A stretch of 8,536 nt of DNA from a virus (taxonomy: Duplodnaviria > Heunggongvirae > Uroviricota > Caudoviricetes). The stretch lies in the IMG/VR virus record IMGVR_UViG_2737471865_000006, positions 1 through 8,536 of that record; one strand, 5' to 3'. The notes under the pieces were generated by a model. The model worked only from the letters and a program-made list of their open reading frames with translations, was not told the origin of the DNA and did not search any database. Both the position numbers and the translations under genes were made by a program. This document shows, piece by piece, positions 1-8,536 of this stretch (position 1 is its first letter; every line of letters starts with the position of its first letter).

Positions 1-12
1 TTCACCGGATGC

Positions 13-699
13 TTACGTTTTATGTGCATGCAGCTCATCAATAATGGCGCAGTGGATGTTCAGACCATCCAGGTTGTTTGCATCCGAGGAAAGCGGTTCA
101 AATTTTGATGCGCTCTGCTCCTGGTAAATCGCCAGCTTGTTGAAATCAAACAACCGCCCGAGTGTCGACCGGGCTTTTCTGACCATATTTTTGGCGTCTT
201 CAAACACAATTCTGGCCTGGTCACGCGTGGTGGCGGCTGAATACACCTCAGCACCGCCTTCACCATCTGCCCCCGTCATATACAGGCCGATACCCGATGA
301 CAGAGTTGATTTTGCGTTTTTACGGGCGACTTCGTTGTACGCCGTCCGGAACCGGCGCACCATCACCGGACGTCCGCTGCCATCGCTGCGCATGACGACT
401 TCCCCGGTCTCTTCATTCACCAGCGGAATGACAAAACCAAAAATATTAATGAGGATAAATACATGCCAGTCCATCAGTTCAATGGGCTGGCCTGCCAGCG
501 CCCCTTTTACATGAGGCACAAATTTGTAGAAATTCAGGATGTGCTGCGCACGGGGTTCACTGAAATAAATCCCCCGCTCTTCGCCGTACTTCAGATCATC
601 AAGAAAACGCTGGCAGGCCAGGCGGACAAATTCGCCAGCAACAATTTCTCCTGCAACAACACGTTCGGCGTAGCGGATCCCGTCAGCCACTTTTGCCAT
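13..699 (-). CDS. Terminase large subunit, N-terminal ATPase region; frame closes with TAA at 13-15 after 228 codons
   Basis: Translation has a P-loop-like motif VARKNAKST and a Walker B-like motif CAIIDELHA. ATG at 697-699 overlaps the TGA stop of the upstream small terminase gene (TGATG). Full-length large terminases are roughly twice this length. Confidence 0.75.
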   Translation of the reverse strand: MAKVADGIRYAERVVAGEIVAGEFVRLACQRFLDDLKYGEERGIYFSEPRAQHILNFYKFVPHVKGALAGQPIELMDWHVFILINIFGFVIPLVNEETGEVVMRSDGSGRPVMVRRFRTAYNEVARKNAKSTLSSGIGLYMTGADGEGGAEVYSAATTRDQARIVFEDAKNMVRKARSTLGRLFDFNKLAIYQEQSASKFEPLSSDANNLDGLNIHCAIIDELHAHKT

Positions 700-1181
700 C
701 AGTCTCTCGCTTTTAAAAGCTCCGCCAGCGGATCAACATCATCCGGTCCGGCGATATTTACTTTAGCCCGGCTTGCCGGTGACATACCAAACTCTGCAAG
801 CATTGCCCGGATCCGCTTCCAGGCATCCGCTTTCATTGCCGCCGCGGGGTGCGCCTTAATCAGTACATCACCGCTCTGCGTTTCCGTGCGGTAGGTATAC
901 CCCTCAACATCGAGTGTTTCGCAGTGATGCCGATATTCGGTGTAGGCTTCCACCAGCAACTCGAGCGCACGCGCATCAAGCTGAGAAATGATCCCTTCCG
1001 CATTCAGCTCTTCCGCCATTCGCCTGAACCAGTACTTCCCCTGAGCCCCTAAATGCTGCGGAATTTTAGGAAGACCTTTTTCATCCTTTTTAGCGGTTTT
1101 TTTGTGGTCTTTAACGGGGCGCTTTGAGGGGTTGCCTCGAATCAAATGCAGGCGTGGCGGGGTTTTCGGAGGTCCTGACAT
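699..1181 (-). CDS. Terminase small subunit, P27 family
   Basis: 160 aa; basic N-terminal region followed by ...AWKRIRAMLAEFGMSPASRAKV, typical of P27-type small terminases; sits directly upstream of the large terminase with stop/start overlap. Confidence 0.8.
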   Translation of the reverse strand: MSGPPKTPPRLHLIRGNPSKRPVKDHKKTAKKDEKGLPKIPQHLGAQGKYWFRRMAEELNAEGIISQLDARALELLVEAYTEYRHHCETLDVEGYTYRTETQSGDVLIKAHPAAAMKADAWKRIRAMLAEFGMSPASRAKVNIAGPDDVDPLAELLKARD

Positions 1182-1329
1182 AATCGGTCTTACCTATCAA
1201 TCGTTTGTTCACATTTCCAAAAAAAAGTTTTCGAACCTGCGGCGATGTGAGGAAGGGTCAGGCGGCGGTACTGAGCAGCCAGGGTTGCAGAGATTTGACC
1301 CGCCCCTCCCTTACAGATTAGAACGATTA

Positions 1330-1680
1330 TCAGTTGATGCGTTCACGCGCTGTTTTCGCCTTGTGGCATGGCCAGCACAGGCTCTGCAGATTACCGTCTG
1401 CATCCGTACCGCCATGCGCTTTCGGAATGATGTGGTCCACAGTTCTGGCTTCAACGGCTCTCCCATTGCGCAGGCAGTTCTGACACAAATGATTATCACG
1501 CTTCAGTATGCGCGCACGTATGGCATCCCATTTCGAGCCATAGCCACGCTGGTGGCGGCTCAGTCCGCGTTGATGTTGTGTCCAACCTTCGCCGCGATGC
1601 TTATCGCAGTAGCCAGAACTGTCCGTCGTTGTGCCTGCACAGCCTCGCTTACGGCATGCACGAGGGATTTGTGATGGCAT
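1330..1680 (-). CDS. HNH endonuclease, packaging-associated
   Basis: Cys-rich N-terminus (CRKRGCAG...CDKH) and HNH core (DHIIPKAHGG...N...CWPCH). Start chosen at the ATG at 1678-1680, which has an AGGAG ribosome-binding site 9 nt upstream, rather than the ORF-track start at 1716. Position immediately before the small terminase matches HK97-type packaging modules. Confidence 0.8.
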   Translation of the reverse strand: MPSQIPRACRKRGCAGTTTDSSGYCDKHRGEGWTQHQRGLSRHQRGYGSKWDAIRARILKRDNHLCQNCLRNGRAVEARTVDHIIPKAHGGTDADGNLQSLCWPCHKAKTARERIN

Positions 1681-1722
1681 AGAATTTCGCTCCTCTAAAA
1701 AATATTCTGCTCTCACCGTCGG

Positions 1723-1905
1723 TCAGTTCTGCATACACTGCCGGACACTATCAACAATTTCACAGACCTGAGAAGCTGTATCGAAAAGCTGGCGCGCCTT
1801 ATCCAGGCTGACGCAGCCCACCAGGAAAAAAGGCACCAGTATCGCTACCAGTGCCCATTTCACCGCCGTTCGCGGCATTCTGTGTGTCCAGTGTTTTCGC
1901 GTCAT
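1723..1905 (-). CDS. Small lipoprotein, 60 aa, function unknown
   Basis: Basic N-region, hydrophobic core WALVAILVPFF and lipobox LVGC; GGTGGTGA ribosome-binding site before the ATG; short Cys-containing mature part. Not proline-rich like lambda Rz1. Confidence 0.5.
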   Translation of the reverse strand: MTRKHWTHRMPRTAVKWALVAILVPFFLVGCVSLDKARQLFDTASQVCEIVDSVRQCMQN

Positions 1906-1989
1906 ATCACCACCAACGCACAGCCCAAATCAGAACAGCGACCGCCACAAGGCGGATTGCAAAGGCCGTTGCCCGAATAAAATCAGCAC

Positions 1990-2187
1990 TCATCTGTTTA
2001 AATAAATTGTTGTGTATGCAACCAGTGCAGTACAAATAATCCATGCAACTGGCGTCAGTATATGTCTGATGCCCCGGCATACCGCGATGATTTTTGCGGC
2101 ATCATCAGCCCCCTGCGGGGTGGTTTCTGCTTTTATCATCAGATCATCTCCAAATTTATCTTTCGTCGTGTTAGGCTTTACTGGCAT
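1990..2187 (-). CDS. Hypothetical small protein with C-terminal transmembrane segment
   Basis: ATG at 2185-2187 preceded by GGGGA; C-terminal hydrophobic stretch PVAWIICTALVAYTTIY. No recognisable family; coding status uncertain. Confidence 0.3.
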   Translation of the reverse strand: MPVKPNTTKDKFGDDLMIKAETTPQGADDAAKIIAVCRGIRHILTPVAWIICTALVAYTTIYLNR

Positions 2188-2229
2188 GAATGATCCCCAT
2201 GCGCATTCACAAAATGAATCCATAAACAC

Positions 2230-2261
2230 AAAGCCCCGATTGCTCCAACAACCGGGGCTTT
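2230..2261 (-). terminator. Intrinsic terminator-like hairpin downstream of the endolysin gene
   Basis: Perfect 9-bp stem AAAGCCCCG / CGGGGCTTT (2230-2238 with 2253-2261) and a 14-nt loop; T-rich flank on both strands. Confidence 0.5.
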
Positions 2262-2268
2262 GCTTTAT

Positions 2269-2646
2269 TTATCGTTTCAACTGAAAGTGAGGCCCATCCT
2301 TTAATGACCGCCACTCACCGCCCCATTCGATGGGGGTATTCAGCTCTGCGGCAGCCTGCTTAAATGCCTGCGCTATTTTCTCATACAGAGGCAAGTCCCA
2401 TGACACCTGGCTGCCAACCCAGGCAACAACATCCACCGCATCACCGGTCAGGTGGCGGCTGTTCATGGTCTGGCTTTTCCCTTCCGCGACCAGCTGTTTC
2501 TGGCGTTCTTTCGTGCGCAGCCCTTCCGTAATACCGAAATCAACCTCCGTCAGCTCCAGCGCACGGCGAACGACAGCAACCAGCTGTGGTTTAACGCCCT
2601 CCAGATTCTTTTCGCTGCGACGACTGAATCTGAATTTACCCGACAT
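2269..2646 (-). CDS. Endolysin, peptidase M15 family (phage T5 Lys-like L-alanyl-D-glutamate peptidase)
   Basis: Motifs KFRFSRRSEKNLEGVKPQL, RRALEL, SRHLTGDAVDV (His...Asp zinc-ligand spacing) and a C-terminal His match the T5 endolysin pattern as recalled. ATG at 2644-2646 has GAGGTGA upstream and lies 2 nt after the stop of the preceding gene; a GTG at 2652 is an alternative start. Confidence 0.8.
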   Translation of the reverse strand: MSGKFRFSRRSEKNLEGVKPQLVAVVRRALELTEVDFGITEGLRTKERQKQLVAEGKSQTMNSRHLTGDAVDVVAWVGSQVSWDLPLYEKIAQAFKQAAAELNTPIEWGGEWRSLKDGPHFQLKR

Positions 2647-2648
2647 AT

Positions 2649-2924
2649 TCACCTCAACAATGGAAAGATTTTTGTGACGTTCCCGCGTGCGCGTATCACC
2701 AGCACGCAGAACAGCAGGTTAAAAAACACTTCCAGCCAGCCCGTTGCTAACGGGCGACCACACAGATAGCTGAGGGGCGCAAAGGCATACAGCAGCATCA
2801 GCAACCAGGCCAGCCATGACATCAGCGGTTTATGTCTGGAATCACGACGACGATAAAAAAAGAGCGTCAGCACGATAACCGTGCATAACGCCACATTCAG
2901 CAATCCGGGAAGGTTACTTAACAT
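2649..2924 (-). CDS. Small membrane protein in lysis cassette (holin/antiholin-like), about 91 aa
   Basis: ATG at 2922-2924 preceded by GGAGGAGG; three hydrophobic segments; overlaps the holin 3' end by 11 nt and is coupled to the endolysin start. Confidence 0.55.
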   Translation of the reverse strand: MLSNLPGLLNVALCTVIVLTLFFYRRRDSRHKPLMSWLAWLLMLLYAFAPLSYLCGRPLATGWLEVFFNLLFCVLVIRARGNVTKIFPLLR

Positions 2925-3306
2925 TGCCGCCTCCTCCACCCCGCAGGCGGGAGAACAGGCCGGACACCAGCGATGCAATATCCTGCTGGTGGATGAACGA
3001 GAGAATCTTCACCGACACCACCGCCACCAGCACCGCACACAGTGCATCCGCCGATGTACCGTCATAACCTGTTTTTGATGCAATCCAGGCTGACAGCACA
3101 TGCGCACCCAGCACGCCAACGATAAACGACACCAGAAAATGCGCCGCCACACGCCAGGCTGAAAGCGCCTGCGGCATCGTTGCCACAAATAACGCCCCAG
3201 CGAACGCCCCAAACACAATCCCGAAATCCGTTCCGGTAAACAGCCCGAATACCGTCGCCCCGCCGAGCGCCGCAGCCGTACCGGAACCGGACAAGGGTTC
3301 AGACAT
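2914..3306 (-). CDS. Putative holin, about 130 aa, multi-pass membrane protein
   Basis: ATG at 3304-3306 with AGGAG 7 nt upstream; Gly/Ala-rich hydrophobic helices; first gene of the lysis cassette, directly upstream of the endolysin. Confidence 0.6.
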   Translation of the reverse strand: MSEPLSGSGTAAALGGATVFGLFTGTDFGIVFGAFAGALFVATMPQALSAWRVAAHFLVSFIVGVLGAHVLSAWIASKTGYDGTSADALCAVLVAVVSVKILSFIHQQDIASLVSGLFSRLRGGGGGNVK

Positions 3307-3320
3307 ACTTTTTCTCCTGT

Positions 3321-3346
3321 AAATAAAAAAGGGCCACTGTCGGCCC
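3321..3346 (-). terminator. Intrinsic terminator immediately upstream of the holin ribosome-binding site
   Basis: Minus-strand RNA GGGCC-GACAGU-GGCCC followed by UUUUUUAUUU (3321-3330); the holin Shine-Dalgarno begins about 4 nt after the U-run. Confidence 0.55.
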
Positions 3347-3432
3347 GTAAAAAAACAACACCCCGTCAAAGGCACCCGCAGATACCTTTTGTGTGGTGTT
3401 ATCTGATGTGATGTGCGCCGGACGTGGCGCGG

Positions 3433-3460
3433 ATATAAAAAAGGCCCGCCGCAGCGAGCC
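3433..3460 (-). terminator. Intrinsic terminator downstream of the AraC-family gene
   Basis: Minus-strand RNA GGCUCGC-UGCG-GCGGGCC (7-bp stem including one G-U pair, tetraloop) followed by UUUUUUAUAU; about 25 nt after the stop at 3486. Confidence 0.6.
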
Positions 3461-3485
3461 TGTTTTCAATGAGTGCAAAATTCAA

Positions 3486-4229
3486 TTATTCTTGAGTAAC
3501 ACTTAAACTCATCTCATTGAATGCAGCCATCCTGTAACCTGCCGGTGTAACACCAAAATAACTCCTGAATACGCTGATAAAATAAGATGTAAAATTATAG
3601 CCACACTGAGCAGCGATTCTGTTGATGGCGCAACGAGATTGATTCAACAGCATTGCTGCCATTCTCATTCTCTCTGTAAGCAACAACTCACTGAAACAGG
3701 TGCCTTCTTCTTTCAGTCTTTTTTTTAACAAACTTTCACTGATACATAACCGCGAAGACACATCTCTCAGAGTCCAGTTTGCTGCAATGTCCGTACGAAA
3801 CAATGCACTAAGCCTGTCACTAATATTGCCAATACACGCGGTCAGAAACGACGAAAACATTTTCTCTGATGAGAAAAACGCCAGACACGAAAAGGAAAGC
3901 ATTTCCGCTAAATTGTCCGTATGAATCTTTTCCTCACAAAGATAATCAATCAGGATGCCCATCAATTCTGCCTTGGGAAAACTCACGCAAAGATATCGTG
4001 GTATTTGCCGGACTAAAACTACATCCTGTTTTTCGTCTCCACACAACAGGTAACGGATAATTGTCGATTCACTGAGACTTATTCGCCGAAAACATTCCGA
4101 AAAGGGCAATAACGATCCAGCTCCCCCCCTGACAAGAAGTGCACTACCACTTTCCAGAGAGAGCTCTTTTCCTTCAAAGAGCACAACAAACGGGGAATGA
4201 ACAAAAACAACAGAACAAGCTTCATTCAT
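3486..4229 (-). CDS. AraC/XylS-family transcriptional regulator, AppY/AdiY/GadX-like group
   Basis: C-terminal helix-turn-helix signature SESLLKKRLKEEGTCFSELLLTERMRMAAMLL...QCGYNFTSYFISVFRSYFGVTPAGYR; N-terminus MNEACSVVFV resembles the AppY family as recalled. Start set at the ATG at 4227-4229 (247 aa), not the TTG at 4289. Markedly AT-rich relative to flanking phage genes. Confidence 0.8.
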   Translation of the reverse strand: MNEACSVVFVHSPFVVLFEGKELSLESGSALLVRGGAGSLLPFSECFRRISLSESTIIRYLLCGDEKQDVVLVRQIPRYLCVSFPKAELMGILIDYLCEEKIHTDNLAEMLSFSCLAFFSSEKMFSSFLTACIGNISDRLSALFRTDIAANWTLRDVSSRLCISESLLKKRLKEEGTCFSELLLTERMRMAAMLLNQSRCAINRIAAQCGYNFTSYFISVFRSYFGVTPAGYRMAAFNEMSLSVTQE

Positions 4230-4262
4230 ATCAATTGCCCTGACATTACTGGTCACAAGATA

Positions 4263-4290
4263 AGTATATATCGATTTACAAAAATACAAG
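4263..4290 (-). promoter_or_regulatory. Candidate sigma70 promoter for the AraC-family gene
   Basis: Minus strand -35 CTTGTA (plus 4285-4290), 16-nt spacer, -10 TATACT (plus 4263-4268), about 30 nt upstream of the ATG. Match by eye only. Confidence 0.35.
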
Positions 4291-4350
4291 CCGAAAGACC
4301 AGTATTCGCAACCACCAGCGCGTTTAACGTCCTGTACCGTTTTTCAGGCA

Positions 4351-4377
4351 TAAAAAAACCCGCTCAGTGGCGGGTTT
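4351..4377 (-). terminator. Intrinsic terminator between the ORF6N gene and the AraC-family gene
   Basis: Minus-strand RNA AAACCCGC-CACUGA-GCGGGUUU followed by UUUUAUGCC; palindromic, so it could act in either direction. Confidence 0.55.
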
Positions 4378-4452
4378 AAGCTGTTTGGCGTAGTAACCAC
4401 TCTTAACAGGATATTCAACTTTTTACGATCGTAAAGCGTTCGGGGAAAATTT

Positions 4453-4758
4453 TTAAAACCGTTCCAGAGTGCATACCATCGCATCGGCGGGTAGTTTTTC
4501 CGTGAAGAGGATGAGGTGCTTTGTACGCGGTGCAACTAAGTTACTTTGAGTAACCTTGTTCTTAAATTCCCGCAACTCAGCCCCTTCCAATTTGAAGTAG
4601 TGTTTCCCACAAACAAAACGCTCGGCATTGCGTGTATAGTTCACTTTGATGTTATTAGTTTCGGTGCCATAAAGTTGTGCCAAAAGCTCGGTAGTAATGA
4701 CAGGGATTTGGTTATGGGTGATCGGGGAAAGAGTTTCAACTGAGATTTGAATAGCCAT
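4453..4758 (-). CDS. ORF6N-domain protein (phage antirepressor-like DNA-binding domain), possibly C-terminally truncated
   Basis: Motif LAQLYGTETNNIKVNYTRNAERFVCGKHYFKLEGAELREFKN ... LFTEK fits the ORF6N pattern; AAGGA ribosome-binding site 7 nt before the ATG; first ORF downstream of tR'. Confidence 0.5.
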   Translation of the reverse strand: MAIQISVETLSPITHNQIPVITTELLAQLYGTETNNIKVNYTRNAERFVCGKHYFKLEGAELREFKNKVTQSNLVAPRTKHLILFTEKLPADAMVCTLERF

Positions 4759-4911
4759 AGGATGATCCTTTTTCTATGTGAATCATCACCACTGCTGACG
4801 CCAATCAGTATGGTGGTGAACTGTGCAGGGTTGGCGTAACCGGGAAAAAGGAACCGGCGCGGATCGCTCCGCCCCCACACAGCCCACCATTGAGATGTGA
4901 CAGTGCAAACG

Positions 4912-4937
4912 ACAATAAAAAAGACGCTGGCGCGTCT
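4912..4937 (-). terminator. tR'-like terminator of the short late transcript
   Basis: Minus-strand RNA AGACGC-GCCA-GCGUCU followed by UUUUUAUUGUC, about 70-75 nt downstream of the predicted pR' start site. Confidence 0.55.
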
Positions 4938-4997
4938 GTTGTCGCCTTTTTCATCCGGGACGCCAATCCCGACGCCAGATTTTGCTGGCGCGTGAGG

Positions 4998-5027
4998 AAT
5001 ATAGCCCCGGACAATGTGTCTGGTCAA
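4998..5027 (-). promoter_or_regulatory. pR'-like late promoter immediately downstream of Q
   Basis: Minus strand -35 TTGACC (plus 5022-5027), 18-nt spacer, -10 TATATT (plus 4998-5003), starting 5 nt after the Q stop. The initial transcribed region has hairpins CGCCAG-N6-CTGGCG (4973-4990) and CGGGA-N6-TCCCG, as expected for a Q-utilisation/pause region. Confidence 0.5.
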
Positions 5028-5031
5028 GCTC

Positions 5032-5418
5032 CTACATGATTCGTTCTACGTATCTGTCCATCTCCAGTCGGATATCAAGCATCATCAACATGCCATCAAT
5101 AACCCCTTCCGCTTTCTGCAGGCGCTTGCCAATACAGGTATCCGAACACCCATGCTTTCGTGCCAACCCCATAAAAGTCATTCCACCTACGTAATAATCC
5201 ACCAACAAATCGTGCAAATCCTGATTTTTCTTGTTCAACCGGGCCATACAGCCACAAATTATCATTGCATCATCATCAGAACACTGAGGGCGTGATTTCA
5301 CTTTCGGCGGGATTAATCCTTTAAAACCAGCAGCGATTGACGCCCATGACACATCTTCGTGATTGTTCGCAGCCCATGCTCCCCACCGCTCCATAACCTG
5401 CTGAATATCACGCACCAT
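5032..5418 (-). CDS. Late-gene antiterminator Q (phage 82 / QuuD-like)
   Basis: [21 protein letters not shown]...[14 protein letters not shown]...LLVDYYV...[16 protein letters not shown] pattern of Q antiterminators. ATG at 5416-5418 with AGGTGA 5 nt upstream; overlaps the rusA 3' end. Confidence 0.85.
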
Positions 5419-5779
5419 CGTTATCACCTGTAATTTCGTAAATCTTCACGCCCAACCGCCCACCAGGAACAGGCAGTCCGCGCACAATATTGATTTCATC
5501 AAACTGCTCGTCGTCTATGAGAAGTCCGGCATGCGTCAGCGCATCCAGTGGTGCCTTCAGGATATTGTCCAGGTCGCGGCGGCGCTTATCCGGTGGCTCT
5601 GCAATAATTTTTATTGCCAGCCTTCCGGACAGGTTTAATTTCAACCGCTGCTGGCGAACAATTAGTGCCACATCACGGCGATAACGCTCCCCTGCTTTTG
5701 ATACAAAATATGTGTTGCCACGACGTCGCCAGTAAGTATTCACCGTCGGCGGATAAGGCAAAACAAACTCTATACGCAT
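5408..5779 (-). CDS. rusA: Holliday junction resolvase RusA
   Basis: [16 protein letters not shown]...[29 protein letters not shown] matches RusA conserved motifs; AAGAGG ribosome-binding site 7 nt upstream. Confidence 0.85.
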
Positions 5780-5791
5780 CAGTAACCTCTT

Positions 5792-6841
5792 TTACCCGAG
5801 CACGCCGGTTGCAAAGGCGTGATCAAGAAAACGAAAAATTAAATCAACCTGGGAACCATGCTTTTCTTCGAACGCCAGCGGATCCGCATGAAGTTCGTTG
5901 TGATGTTCCCGGCACAACGGTAGCGTGAAAATATCGTGGGCCTTTGTTCCCATCCCTCCCTGACCGTGACCAATCAGGTGATGGGGATCGTCGGCTGGCT
6001 GACCACAACACGCACACGGCTGTGTCTTCACCCAGCGCGTATATTTCTCATTTACCCAACGGCGACGTTTAGGTCGCCTCATGAAAGATTCCGGAGACTC
6101 CGGATCAACGGTGATGCATACCACCGTCTTTTCCTGTGGTGGGTTCTGTTGCTGGTGGGCATGAGGCAACGGCGCAAGATTTTTTGTGCGCTGCTTCAGT
6201 ATGCTGGTGGCGGTCTGCTCTCCCGGTACGATGTCGCTTTCGCGGTACAAGGAGCGGATTTTTTCCGCACGTAACCCCAGAGAACGACGTAATACTGCCT
6301 CCGGAAGCGCGTCCGCCACCTGATTGCAGACCGCCCACCAGGATAATTCAGCCAGCGACAATTCCCGCTCCTGCGTGCCATTCATTGCATGGCGTATGAC
6401 GTCAATCATCCATGCTGACAGGTTTTGATGAGCAAGTTGCCCGAGTGATTCGGATGTCTGGTCACGCAACTGGTTGTCGCAGTGCCAGCACAACACCATC
6501 GCGCCGGTACCGTAACGATGTATGACGATTTCACTGTGATGATAGTCACCATGAGGCCACTGGCAGGATTTGACATGACGCAACAGCCAGTCAGACAGTG
6601 CCCCAGCGCCGCCAGCAGCACGAATCACCCGCTCATCGCTGAAAAATGGCAGTAATGATTTATCCTCCGCCAGCGGCTGGCGAACGGCAGGGACGACTCC
6701 GGACGGCAGACCGCGCATGCTTTTCGGTTCAGGCTCCACCAGCACTCGAGGGTTATGAAATACTTGCATGGATTCACGGCCCGGCCTAAGGACCACCAGC
6801 CCGAGTTCCGGTACCAGAACAGGTCGAAGTAATATCCGCAC
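5792..6841 (-). CDS. DUF968-like prophage protein (YdfU-like) with C-terminal Cys/His HNH-like motif
   Basis: Large nin-region ORF with C-terminal CACCGQPADDPHHLIGHGQGGMGTKAHDIF...CREHHNELH. Start proposed at the GTG at 6839-6841, which has GGAGGT upstream and follows the upstream gene's TAA by 1 nt, giving 349 aa. The ORF-track start at 6913 would overlap the upstream gene. Confidence 0.6.
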   Translation of the reverse strand: MRILLRPVLVPELGLVVLRPGRESMQVFHNPRVLVEPEPKSMRGLPSGVVPAVRQPLAEDKSLLPFFSDERVIRAAGGAGALSDWLLRHVKSCQWPHGDYHHSEIVIHRYGTGAMVLCWHCDNQLRDQTSESLGQLAHQNLSAWMIDVIRHAMNGTQERELSLAELSWWAVCNQVADALPEAVLRRSLGLRAEKIRSLYRESDIVPGEQTATSILKQRTKNLAPLPHAHQQQNPPQEKTVVCITVDPESPESFMRRPKRRRWVNEKYTRWVKTQPCACCGQPADDPHHLIGHGQGGMGTKAHDIFTLPLCREHHNELHADPLAFEEKHGSQVDLIFRFLDHAFATGVLG

Positions 6842-6842
6842 G

Positions 6843-7121
6843 TTACCTCCAGATCCGTTGCTGGTATGTGCGGGATGGGCGCGGTGGGCGTTCGGAATAA
6901 GGGAGCCTGACATAGATTATCCAGTGACGATAATCGAGGCTGAGGGCTTTCTTAATCTCGTATCCGCGTCTGCGATAGTTATGAATTAGCCATTCGGCCT
7001 GTTCTTCAGTACATGGGTCATGCTGGAACCAGTCAGATTTGAAAGTGCGGGAACGCCGCCCGTGCCTGCTGGCAAAGACGGCAGAATCATCAGAATTGTG
7101 TAATTTGGTATCGTGCGCCAT
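6843..7121 (-). CDS. Hypothetical small basic protein, 92 aa, upstream of the DUF968 gene
   Basis: ATG at 7119-7121; ORF-track start at 7202 rejected because it overlaps the terminator at 7194-7218; stop is translationally coupled to the DUF968 start. No recognisable family. Confidence 0.45.
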   Translation of the reverse strand: MAHDTKLHNSDDSAVFASRHGRRSRTFKSDWFQHDPCTEEQAEWLIHNYRRRGYEIKKALSLDYRHWIIYVRLPYSERPPRPSRTYQQRIWR

Positions 7122-7193
7122 CGGTTGTCTCTGCTGGCGCAGCAGGTGCCAGTTGTTCAGGCTGGCGTGCGAATTGTAAACCAGAATGCCAGG

Positions 7194-7218
7194 AAAAAAC
7201 AAAAACCGCCGAAGCGGG
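7194..7218 (-). terminator. Intrinsic terminator with UUCG tetraloop
   Basis: Minus-strand RNA CCGC-UUCG-GCGG followed by UUUUUGUUUUUU. Confidence 0.55.
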
Positions 7219-7417
7219 TATGCTAAAACAAACTGAAAGTAATATACCGGACTTGTAAAGGAACGATAGAATAATTATTGGATTAAACCCTGACTCAATC
7301 CAGATTTCATAGGCAACAACTACGGACTAATCATCACAGTCATGTTTGATAGACTTAGTCCACATTGGGTGAGGGTTTACGGCGTTTTCACTAATAATTT
7401 ATCGTCCAAGCTATACA

Positions 7418-7810
7418 CTACTGCCCTGTTTTAACGAAGTTTTTAAAGGAAACAACTGCCTGATAGGGGTTTGGTTGACAGCCAAACATATTATCGCAAA
7501 AAGGCTTGATGAAAATTCTTGAGGATCCATCTTCATTTGGCATTTTACTCACTTGATAAGCGAGGAATGGACTATTTGGAGAGGGATTATAAGTGGAAAT
7601 TAGCGTGTCTGTCGCCGTTTGAATTTTCCATGAGGAATTATTAGCCAACCAGAATTGCGCTCGTTTCCAATAAAAGTCACATTGCTTTTCATCATTACAT
7701 GTTAGTGGCTTCATTGCTTCTGCTTTCAACGCTGGATCGACCTTTGCTGCACACCCTCCCAACATTACTGTTGCAATCATTACACCTGCGACTAAAACAA
7801 GTTTCTTCAT
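7418..7810 (-). CDS. Secreted lipoprotein, 130 aa, unknown function (AT-rich cargo gene)
   Basis: Signal peptide MKKLVLVAGVMIATVMLGGC with lipobox LGGC; four further Cys in the mature part; lower GC than flanking genes; bracketed by terminators on both sides. Confidence 0.7.
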   Translation of the reverse strand: MKKLVLVAGVMIATVMLGGCAAKVDPALKAEAMKPLTCNDEKQCDFYWKRAQFWLANNSSWKIQTATDTLISTYNPSPNSPFLAYQVSKMPNEDGSSRIFIKPFCDNMFGCQPNPYQAVVSFKNFVKTGQ

Positions 7811-7861
7811 CTCCCTGCCCCATCAATAAAAGTTCGGTTCTCTAATAACTAGAGTTAATCA

Positions 7862-7884
7862 ACGGAAAAAACGCCGAAGCGGGT
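7862..7884 (-). terminator. Terminator-like hairpin downstream of hok
   Basis: Minus-strand RNA CCGC-UUCG-GCG followed by UUUUUUCCG, about 70 nt after the hok stop; short stem; nearly identical in sequence to the 7194-7218 element. Confidence 0.45.
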
Positions 7885-7953
7885 TAAGTGCGGGTGCGTT
7901 GAGGATGCCTGACACATCAGAGGTGGCGAGGGATTTCTCCCCCGCCAGGTCTC

Positions 7954-8109
7954 TTACTCCTCAGGTTCGTAAGCTGTGAAGACAGCGACCTCCGTCTGGC
8001 CGGTTCGGATTCGTACCTCGCAGAGGTCTTTCCTCGTTACCAGTGCCGTCACAATGACGGTTAAACAGATGACGATCAGGGCGATTAACATCGCCTTTTG
8101 CTGCTTCAT
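7954..8109 (-). CDS. hok: Hok/Gef-family type I toxin (small membrane-depolarising peptide)
   Basis: 51 aa MKQQKAMLIALIVICLTVIVTALVTRKDLCEVRIRTGQTEVAVFTAYEPEE, which matches HokD/HokC (Gef) as recalled; ATG at 8107-8109 with AAGGAG 8 nt upstream. Confidence 0.85.
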   Translation of the reverse strand: MKQQKAMLIALIVICLTVIVTALVTRKDLCEVRIRTGQTEVAVFTAYEPEE

Positions 8110-8166
8110 AGCCTGCTTCTCCTTGCCTTTCGGCACGTAAGAGGCTAACCTAGATTTGCCGTTCAT
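7954..8166 (-). CDS. mok: Mok-like overlapping reading frame (in-frame N-terminally extended Hok)
   Basis: In-frame 19-codon extension MNGKSRLASYVPKGKEKQA upstream of hok, ATG at 8164-8166 with GAGG 9 nt upstream; same arrangement as mokC/hokC as recalled. Confidence 0.55.
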   Translation of the reverse strand: MNGKSRLASYVPKGKEKQAMKQQKAMLIALIVICLTVIVTALVTRKDLCEVRIRTGQTEVAVFTAYEPEE

Positions 8167-8230
8167 AGATTGAGCCTCAGATTAATGTTAAGCGTCTTGC
8201 AGGACGCGTAATGTTAACTGGGGCTTTTCT

Positions 8231-8266
8231 CTATCTGCCTTTGGTGTTCATGCCTGAGGCAGATAG
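8231..8266. repeat. Perfect 10-bp inverted repeat in the hok leader region
   Basis: CTATCTGCCT (8231-8240) and AGGCAGATAG (8257-8266) with a 16-nt loop. Adjacent are two TAATGTTAA direct repeats (8183-8191 and 8209-8217) flanking the hairpin GCGTC-N6-GACGC (8192-8207). Confidence 0.6.
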
Positions 8267-8465
8267 CCTCAAGCACCCGCAGCAATTCTACTTAACTCAC
8301 CTCACCTCGCCAATATAAAATCAATCAGAAAGGCGATCCATAAGAACAACAGCAAGGCAATAAATTGCCATTACAGCGTAAGCATCCGGTGAAGGCGCAT
8401 TGCCGGCCGTCGTAAACCACGCCATTCTGCAGGCTCTTCCTTTATATGCAAAAGTGAGAAACCTG

Positions 8466-8536
8466 ATGGCAAAAAAAATGACCCCGGCGCAGCGACGCCA
8501 GCACTACGACGCCTGGCGCGCCTTCTCCGCTGACGA
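8466..8536 (+). CDS. 5' end of an unidentified plus-strand gene running off the window
   Basis: ATG at 8466 then MAKKMTPAQRRQHYDAWRAFSAD with no stop before the window end; divergent from hok. Only 23 codons visible; weak ribosome-binding site. Confidence 0.3.
   Translation, partial: MAKKMTPAQRRQHYDAWRAFSAD

Follow-up and report, generated by a model that had tools for sequence, protein, structure and literature searches.

The large-terminase gene (terL) at the left edge of the stretch of viral DNA analysed here (8,536 nucleotides in its full length, hereafter the window) is, with a probability of roughly 0.93, truncated by an IS66-family element that lies in codon 228 of terL in an HK97/P27-type lambdoid Escherichia coli prophage. 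In the mechanism that we propose, an insertion sequence (IS) of ~2.5 kb with the genes tnpA-tnpB-tnpC would have transposed into codon 228 of terL, where its left end (GTAAGC…) joins …CAT AAA AC and gives ACG followed in frame by TAA. The product is a 228-residue stub that retains Walker A and Walker B and is without the nuclease, so that no packaging would follow. The prophage is interrupted once more, 8.36 kb away, by another copy of this IS in the opposite orientation.

The truncated open reading frame occupies positions 13..699 of the minus strand and comprises 228 codons, from an ATG at 697-699 to a TAA at 13-15. The preliminary description had reported a terL frame with ATPase motifs that closes after 228 codons just past Walker B, and both the sequence and the Pfam search bear this out. 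Specifically, the product matches PF03354 (TerL ATPase; E = 5.7e-21) over profile positions 16-135/178, the match being cut short at position 135 of 178. Sequence reading together with a clade alignment (see below) places the Walker A motif or P-loop, ARKNAKST, at residues 125-132 (304..327, minus strand) and the Walker B motif, IIDELH, at residues 219-224 (28..45, minus strand), and both align to the motifs of HK97 TerL (PDB 6Z6D). The stop is reached four residues past the Walker B histidine (IIDELH-AHKT-stop). The stub ends before the conserved GITTAG stretch, whose counterpart in the alignment with HK97 TerL is ISTQ, presumably the C or coupling motif. Everything after residue 228 is absent, including the RNase H-like nuclease domain, which is present as PF20441 in all full-length relatives. 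That the nuclease domain is missing from this frame, as had been noted, is confirmed over the whole window: TerL residues 229-585 (the C-terminal 357) are encoded in no frame of it (best tblastn E = 2.5). Upstream, the context is of the HK97 type, with an HNH gene and a small-terminase gene, and downstream of the terL stub lies the IS at the window edge. Judged by these features, the 228-residue product is without the rest of the ATPase domain (GITTAG stretch and lid) and without the whole nuclease domain, and the reading frame at 13..699 is best regarded as a gene fragment and not as a functional member of the TerL family. The stub is predicted to be unable to cut or package DNA, and the prophage would be packaging-defective.

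The boundary between terL and the IS can be placed to the base. The 5' fragment of terL, codons 1-228, is assigned to 17..699 (minus strand) on the basis of the PF03354 match and of its identity to the TerL of the E. coli UTAK-5 prophage; it spans the N-terminal region and the ATPase core to a point just beyond Walker B. Positions 1..16 hold the outermost 16 nt of an IS66-family terminal inverted repeat, which reads GTAAGCATCCGGTGAA on the minus strand and whose body lies beyond the left edge; the initial 16 nt of the IS terminus on plasmid pSB109, taken as their reverse complement, give window bases 1-16 (TTCACCGGATGCTTAC). The junction, CATAAAAC|GTAAGCATCC, reads …CAT AAA AC|G TAA GCA TCC… on the coding strand. 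Base 1 of the IS (window base 16) is the third base of codon Thr228, which becomes ACG in place of ACC; the TAA at 13..15 (minus strand; …AAA AC|G TAA GC… by sequence reading), in frame directly after Thr228, is made up of IS bases 2-4. The stop thus comes with the terminal sequence of the IS and did not arise by mutation of terL. It had been supposed that any intervening element would begin beyond the window edge, which does not hold, since the last 16 nt of the IS lie inside the window and make the stop. At the junction point intact terL reads AAA ACC CGT GAC; the intact 585-aa homologue reads DELHAHKTRDVWDV…, the UTAK-5 TerL protein across the break point is …IIDELHAHKTRDVWDV…, and terL without the interruption at window base 16/17 is …CATAAAACCCGTGAC….

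Comparison with complete genomes gives the same boundary. A megablast search with window positions 1-1800 against 5,426 complete E. coli genomes matched 1,072 E. coli records; among the matches listed, every one begins at query base 17, and these matches are annotated as terminase large subunit, P27 small subunit and HNH. Pairwise alignment with UTAK-5 shows identity up to base 17, and bases 1-16 have no homology there. A resemblance of window positions 1-13 to a terL stretch 24 nt downstream (9/13 bases in a MAFFT alignment) was considered and attributed to chance, the 16 nt being the IS terminus. An IS66-family insertion in terL that creates an early stop is an ordinary way of disabling an E. 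coli prophage.

The inserted element was identified by reference to an IS of 2,484 bp on the Salmonella enterica IncC plasmid pSB109 (NZ_CP101857.1, 103502-105985). IS66-family terminal inverted repeats begin GTAAGC… according to ISfinder descriptions, tnpC encodes the DDE transposase in this family, and an 8-bp target-site duplication is a family trait. The inverted repeats of the pSB109 element begin GTAAGCATCCGGTGAAGGCGCAT, its two ends are identical over the first 23 nt, and an 8-bp duplication, GAAATTAC, flanks it and fixes its exact termini. Its genes tnpA, tnpB and tnpC are matched by the NCBIfam equivalogs IS66 TnpA (E = 9e-11) and IS66_TnpB (E = 1.5e-31) and by transpos_IS66 (459 bits, E = 1.1e-137, for the tnpC product), so that the three IS66 genes are all present on the pSB109 copy, the window showing only the first 23 tnpA codons. 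The terminal repeat is found at both window ends, where positions 1-16 (reverse complement) and 8378-8403 read GTAAGCATCCGGTGAAGG…. The target duplication is seen for the pSB109 copy, and the far junctions of both window copies lie outside the window; by analogy with pSB109, the 8 bp that abut the IS end at the terL junction (CATAAAAC, 17..24, minus strand) are the predicted target site. Exact copies of this variant number 1 among 72,556 plasmids, and relatives of 97.3% identity occur in 168 of the 5,426 complete E. coli genomes (~3%); the variant is rare.

The junction recurs in other assemblies. An exact-sequence look-up of the 228-aa product, which lists a part of all similar places, found the same stop-containing gene on four further contigs, L004, L005, L007 and L008, each of which measures at most 10 kb, ends just past the stop and is 99.96-100% identical to the window. 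L007 and L008, which span the junction, match the window along their entire length with 100% identity. Past the junction, IS sequence extends for 141 nt in L004 (GTAAGCATCCGGTGAAGGCGCATTGCCGG…ATGGCAAAAAAAATGACCCCGGCG…) and for 29 nt in L005. The 141-nt extension shows 94.5% identity to elements of 167 E. coli genomes that carry the annotation IS66 tnpA, and 100% identity to the element on Salmonella plasmid pSB109. The preliminary description had advised inspection of the sequence beyond coordinate 1 for the remaining terminase domain in another frame; contigs L004 and L005 supply that sequence, and it proves to be the tnpA end of the IS and not an other-frame terminase. Because both inverted repeats are identical over the first 23 nt, it is through these sister contigs that window positions 1-16 are assigned to the tnpA-proximal end. 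Altogether the junction is present in at least four other assemblies, one from NCBI and three from Logan, which derive from separate sequencing runs; among the assemblies with the junction are GCA_900480575.1 and those of SRR26082362, ERR4228819 and SRR19845320. It occurs in 0 of the 5,426 complete E. coli genomes, a near-junction 18-mer has no match in viral_contigs and a near-junction 25-mer has none in the JGI metagenomes.

Six additional contigs (L002, L003, L006 and L009-L011), which come from unrelated assemblies, end at codon 228/229 without the IS, and a recombination hotspot or mosaic boundary at this place was considered. The hotspot reading was dropped, as an exact look-up of the 228-aa product picks out the few contigs whose ends fall by chance within these 3 nt. 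These six contigs read CATAAAACCCG, which is uninterrupted terL; a mosaic boundary between co-resident prophages at codon 228/229 in them is possible. Two gaps in all separate L004 from the window. At 5876-6252 of L004 two ORFs (60 and 65 aa) stand in place of the M15 endolysin gene, which is intact (127 aa) at window positions 2269-2652.

The nearest intact TerL is that of the E. coli UTAK-5 prophage (WP_001140903.1, 585 aa), whose gene is followed by portal, protease and capsid genes. The 228 residues of the stub are 100% identical to the N-terminus of this protein, which is itself 100% identical to the TerL of Escherichia phage vB_EcoM-606R7; the nearest intact genes also occur in Escherichia phage phi467, and that of phage mEp235 stands at 87%. 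Alignment with intact HK97/P27-type large terminases, which had been proposed earlier, thus shows the stub to be residues 1-228 of 585, with motifs that align to those of 6Z6D. HK97 TerL (6Z6D) matches the intact UTAK-5-type protein with E = 1.1e-35, and in this alignment ARKNAKST stands against ARKNGKTG and IIDELH against ILDETG. The stub shares both Walker motifs with HK97-type TerL (PF03354 plus PF20441), and the order of the genes, HNH - P27 small terminase - large terminase, agrees as well. Unlike its intact relatives, the stub is without residues 229-585.

The preliminary description had remarked on the P-loop, which reads KNAKS in place of a KNGKS sequence taken as usual. The reading KNAKS is correct, HK97 itself having KNGKT, and the clade thus has A where HK97 has G before the P-loop lysine; as a sign of a defect, however, it fails. 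In a clade alignment of 12 sequences, namely the stub and 11 full-length relatives that include phage mEp235, phage phi467 and homologues from Salmonella, Enterobacter, Serratia, Providencia, Xenorhabdus, Proteus, Leminorella and Yersinia, ARKNAKST is invariant in 12 of 12 members, as are D221 and E222. Because it is invariant in a clade that includes the phage isolate mEp235, KNAKS is not a lesion, and the P-loop alanine is to be read from these sequences as a clade trait.

The same comparison bears on the age of the event. It had been suggested that terL is a pseudogene in a decaying prophage; the pseudogene stands, whereas decay finds no support in the retained part, whose 228 residues are 100% identical to those of the intact UTAK-5 TerL. 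This identity and the rarity of the junction suggest a recent event, and they point to a disruption that would be a single hit in one lineage. As in other IS-disrupted genes of defective E. coli prophages, a single IS inactivates an essential late gene and leaves an inducible prophage packaging-defective. In principle nothing sets the present case apart from them; this combination of site and IS is absent from the 5,426 complete E. coli genomes. In the UTAK-5 prophage, another IS66-like element, of the ISEc23 family, lies beside an ORF6N remnant (L001, 8760-9784), and IS66-family elements have therefore hit this type of prophage more than once. A protein collection clustered at 90% identity assigns the 228-aa TerL fragment to a cluster of 7,519 members, of which the representative and most of the listed members are 'host specificity protein J' tail proteins; the grouping of a terL stub with tail protein J looks like a clustering artefact, perhaps brought about through a chimeric member.

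At the other end of the window, positions 8378..8536 (plus strand) hold the second copy of the same IS66-family element in inverted orientation, comprising its left inverted repeat and the start of tnpA (ATG at 8466), as established by identity to pSB109. This copy is 100% identical to positions 1-143 of the pSB109 IS and begins right after ATTACAGC (8370-8377), and an uninterrupted related prophage (L003) reads straight through this second junction. Taken together, identity to the pSB109 element is 100% over 16 nt and 143 nt at the two window ends and over 141 nt in L004. As distinct from the pSB109 element, only the ends of the window copies are visible, and the copy at 8378-8536 seems to be 75 nt of tnpA short: window positions 8521-8536 correspond to IS positions 219-234 and not to 144-159, the 75-nt in-frame skip in tnpA lying between CGCG microhomologies. 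At this skip L004 has the undeleted tnpA sequence. The skip may reflect a genuine deletion in this IS copy or be an artefact of the contig end.

The prophage segment between the two IS copies (17-8377) measures 8,361 bp, and the copies are inverted with their tnpA-proximal ends facing inward. Because two IS copies bracket the segment and the sister contigs all end inside the IS, the window is most likely a short-read contig broken at repeats. This also accounts for the appearance of a reading frame that ends at the window edge, since short-read assemblers break at both IS copies. The strain carries at least two copies of the rare IS66 variant. The identical IS is otherwise seen only on the conjugative IncC plasmid pSB109, and the element that brackets the block is apparently active. 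It is very unlikely, in our estimation, that the 8.36-kb block is a compound transposon by which late-region phage genes travel from one replicon to another, and not the outcome of two unrelated insertions in a resident prophage.

The genes between the two IS copies are those of a lambdoid prophage. Adjacent to terL lies an intact small-terminase gene of the P27 family (160 aa, 699..1181, minus strand; PF05119, E = 2.3e-25), whose stop overlaps the terL start and whose homologue is annotated likewise in RefSeq, and this gene is followed by that of an HNH endonuclease (1330..1716, minus strand; PF01844, E = 7e-16). The HNH-terminase gene order is the same in intact prophages and phages and is the usual HK97-type packaging arrangement. 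The segment as a whole carries hok/sok, DUF968, RusA, Q, the IsrK/C4 RNAs, an ORF6N fragment, an AraC-family regulator, holins, the M15 endolysin, HNH, terS and the terL fragment, and the second IS copy stands upstream of hok/sok, 8.36 kb from the terL junction. A hok/gef-type toxin ORF of 70 aa (7954-8166, minus strand) overlaps a sok RNA at 8104-8278 (Rfam, 111.7 bits), and the two form a type I toxin-antitoxin module of the prophage early/nin region. Directly downstream of Q, Rfam places isrK at 4917-4991, a c4 a1b1 target at 4952-5004 and a C4 antisense RNA at 4809-4894 (minus strand), and downstream of these RNAs, in the region 4453-5004 of the window, lies a 101-aa ORF with the ORF6N (antirepressor N-terminal) domain only. 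The isrK/C4/ORF6N arrangement is a control cassette of the P1/P7-like C4-ant or the Gifsy IsrK type, and its antirepressor gene may be truncated; the UTAK-5 homologue of the 101-aa ORF6N gene is annotated as incomplete. The AraC-family regulator (247-267 aa, depending on start choice; 3486-4289, minus strand) lies between Q and the holin/endolysin cassette, which is where lambdoid phages carry cargo such as stx, and many close relatives come from porcine ETEC strains.

A simple insertion would leave a second copy of the target CATAAAAC at the opposite end of the IS. The far terL junction would then consist of the IS right end, CATAAAAC and CCGTGACGTGTGGGAC… (CCGTGAC…), followed by the portal and capsid genes; a simple second insertion would likewise give the IS right end, ATTACAGC and AGCAATAGCC… on its far side. 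In longer form, the predicted far junctions are the IS right end followed by CATAAAAC and CCGTGACGTGTGGGACGTTCTGG, and the IS right end followed by ATTACAGC and AGCAATAGCCAGCGC. The predicted terL far junction was found in none of the viral, GTDB-representative or JGI metagenome collections searched. Specifically, the far-junction 18-mer GGATGCTTACCATAAAAC gave one chance match, to an unrelated contig, in viral_contigs and 18 chance matches in unrelated phyla in genome_contigs, the pattern being too short for a collection of 596 Gb, and a far-junction 25-mer gave no match in the JGI metagenomes. A search with the C-terminal 357 residues of TerL against a collection of 5.8 billion proteins singled out no free-standing 3' fragment among the 90% clusters, in which fragments are merged into large groups (P0001 = 3,590 members).

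These results leave room for an arrangement in which the IS is present and the rest of terL does not lie beyond it, having been separated by a deletion, an inversion or a composite transposon that leaves the 5' fragment an orphan; we regard such an arrangement as possible, though on the unlikely side. It would agree with the two inverted IS copies whose tnpA-proximal ends both point inward, a configuration that established transposition models predict both for a compound transposon and for inversion by intramolecular replicative transposition, as well as with the failure of every scan to find the predicted simple-insertion far junction and with the size of the junction contigs, all of which measure at most 10 kb. 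The negative scans, however, weigh little, as the collections searched do not hold the assemblies of this strain, and at both inner junctions the IS breaks a stretch that related intact prophages have uninterrupted, which is equally expected of two independent simple insertions. The data are thus compatible both with two simple insertions in an otherwise complete prophage and with an IS-mediated inversion, deletion or compound transposon. Under either structure the terL reading frame is destroyed, and whatever may survive of the terL 3' part is cut off and can no longer be expressed.

Three further explanations were considered. The window does resemble a short-read contig with repeats at both ends, and the jump of 75 nt of IS sequence just before the window's final 16 nt could be a contig-end artefact, so that the terL-IS junction might be thought a chimeric contig end in an organism whose terL is intact. 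This is very improbable, because the identical junction is found in at least four other assemblies and because the break falls exactly at an IS terminus that was set by the target duplication in an unrelated plasmid, as a random chimera would not. Point decay in an old cryptic prophage, whereby a nonsense mutation or frameshift puts the nuclease domain out of frame, would account for the premature stop itself and for nothing beyond it; with terL DNA homology that ends abruptly at base 17, IS repeat sequence in its place, no continuation in another frame and 228 retained residues without any substitution relative to intact TerL, we give it next to no weight. Equally slight is the chance that full-length TerL is still made through recoding, a self-splicing intron, an intein or a homing element. 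An HNH gene does lie nearby, and the terminase genes of some phages host introns and inteins, but this HNH gene is a standard HK97-type packaging accessory that occupies the same place in intact phages, and the inserted DNA is a DDE-transposase IS with tnpA-tnpB-tnpC and terminal inverted repeats, a class of element for which we know of no splicing mechanism. Rfam finds no intron in the window, and terL homology does not resume within the window past the interruption. Of the frameshift or intervening element that the preliminary description had envisaged at the edge, it is accordingly the element that is found, in the form of an IS66-family IS, and frameshift, recoding and splicing fall away.

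The disruption of a prophage gene by an IS is an already known and ordinary phenomenon, and the truncation of terL by an IS66-family element belongs to it. For annotation, it means that the 228-codon 'phage terminase' entries deposited from E. coli (e.g. SQK57378.1 and SQS26831.1) are IS-truncated pseudogene fragments. The case also illustrates how a stop codon in frame can come from the end of an IS, and how a gene may seem simply to close where a contig runs out in a repeat. As far as the sequence allows a judgement, the insertion in terL has probably immobilised an otherwise intact-looking HK97-type prophage.
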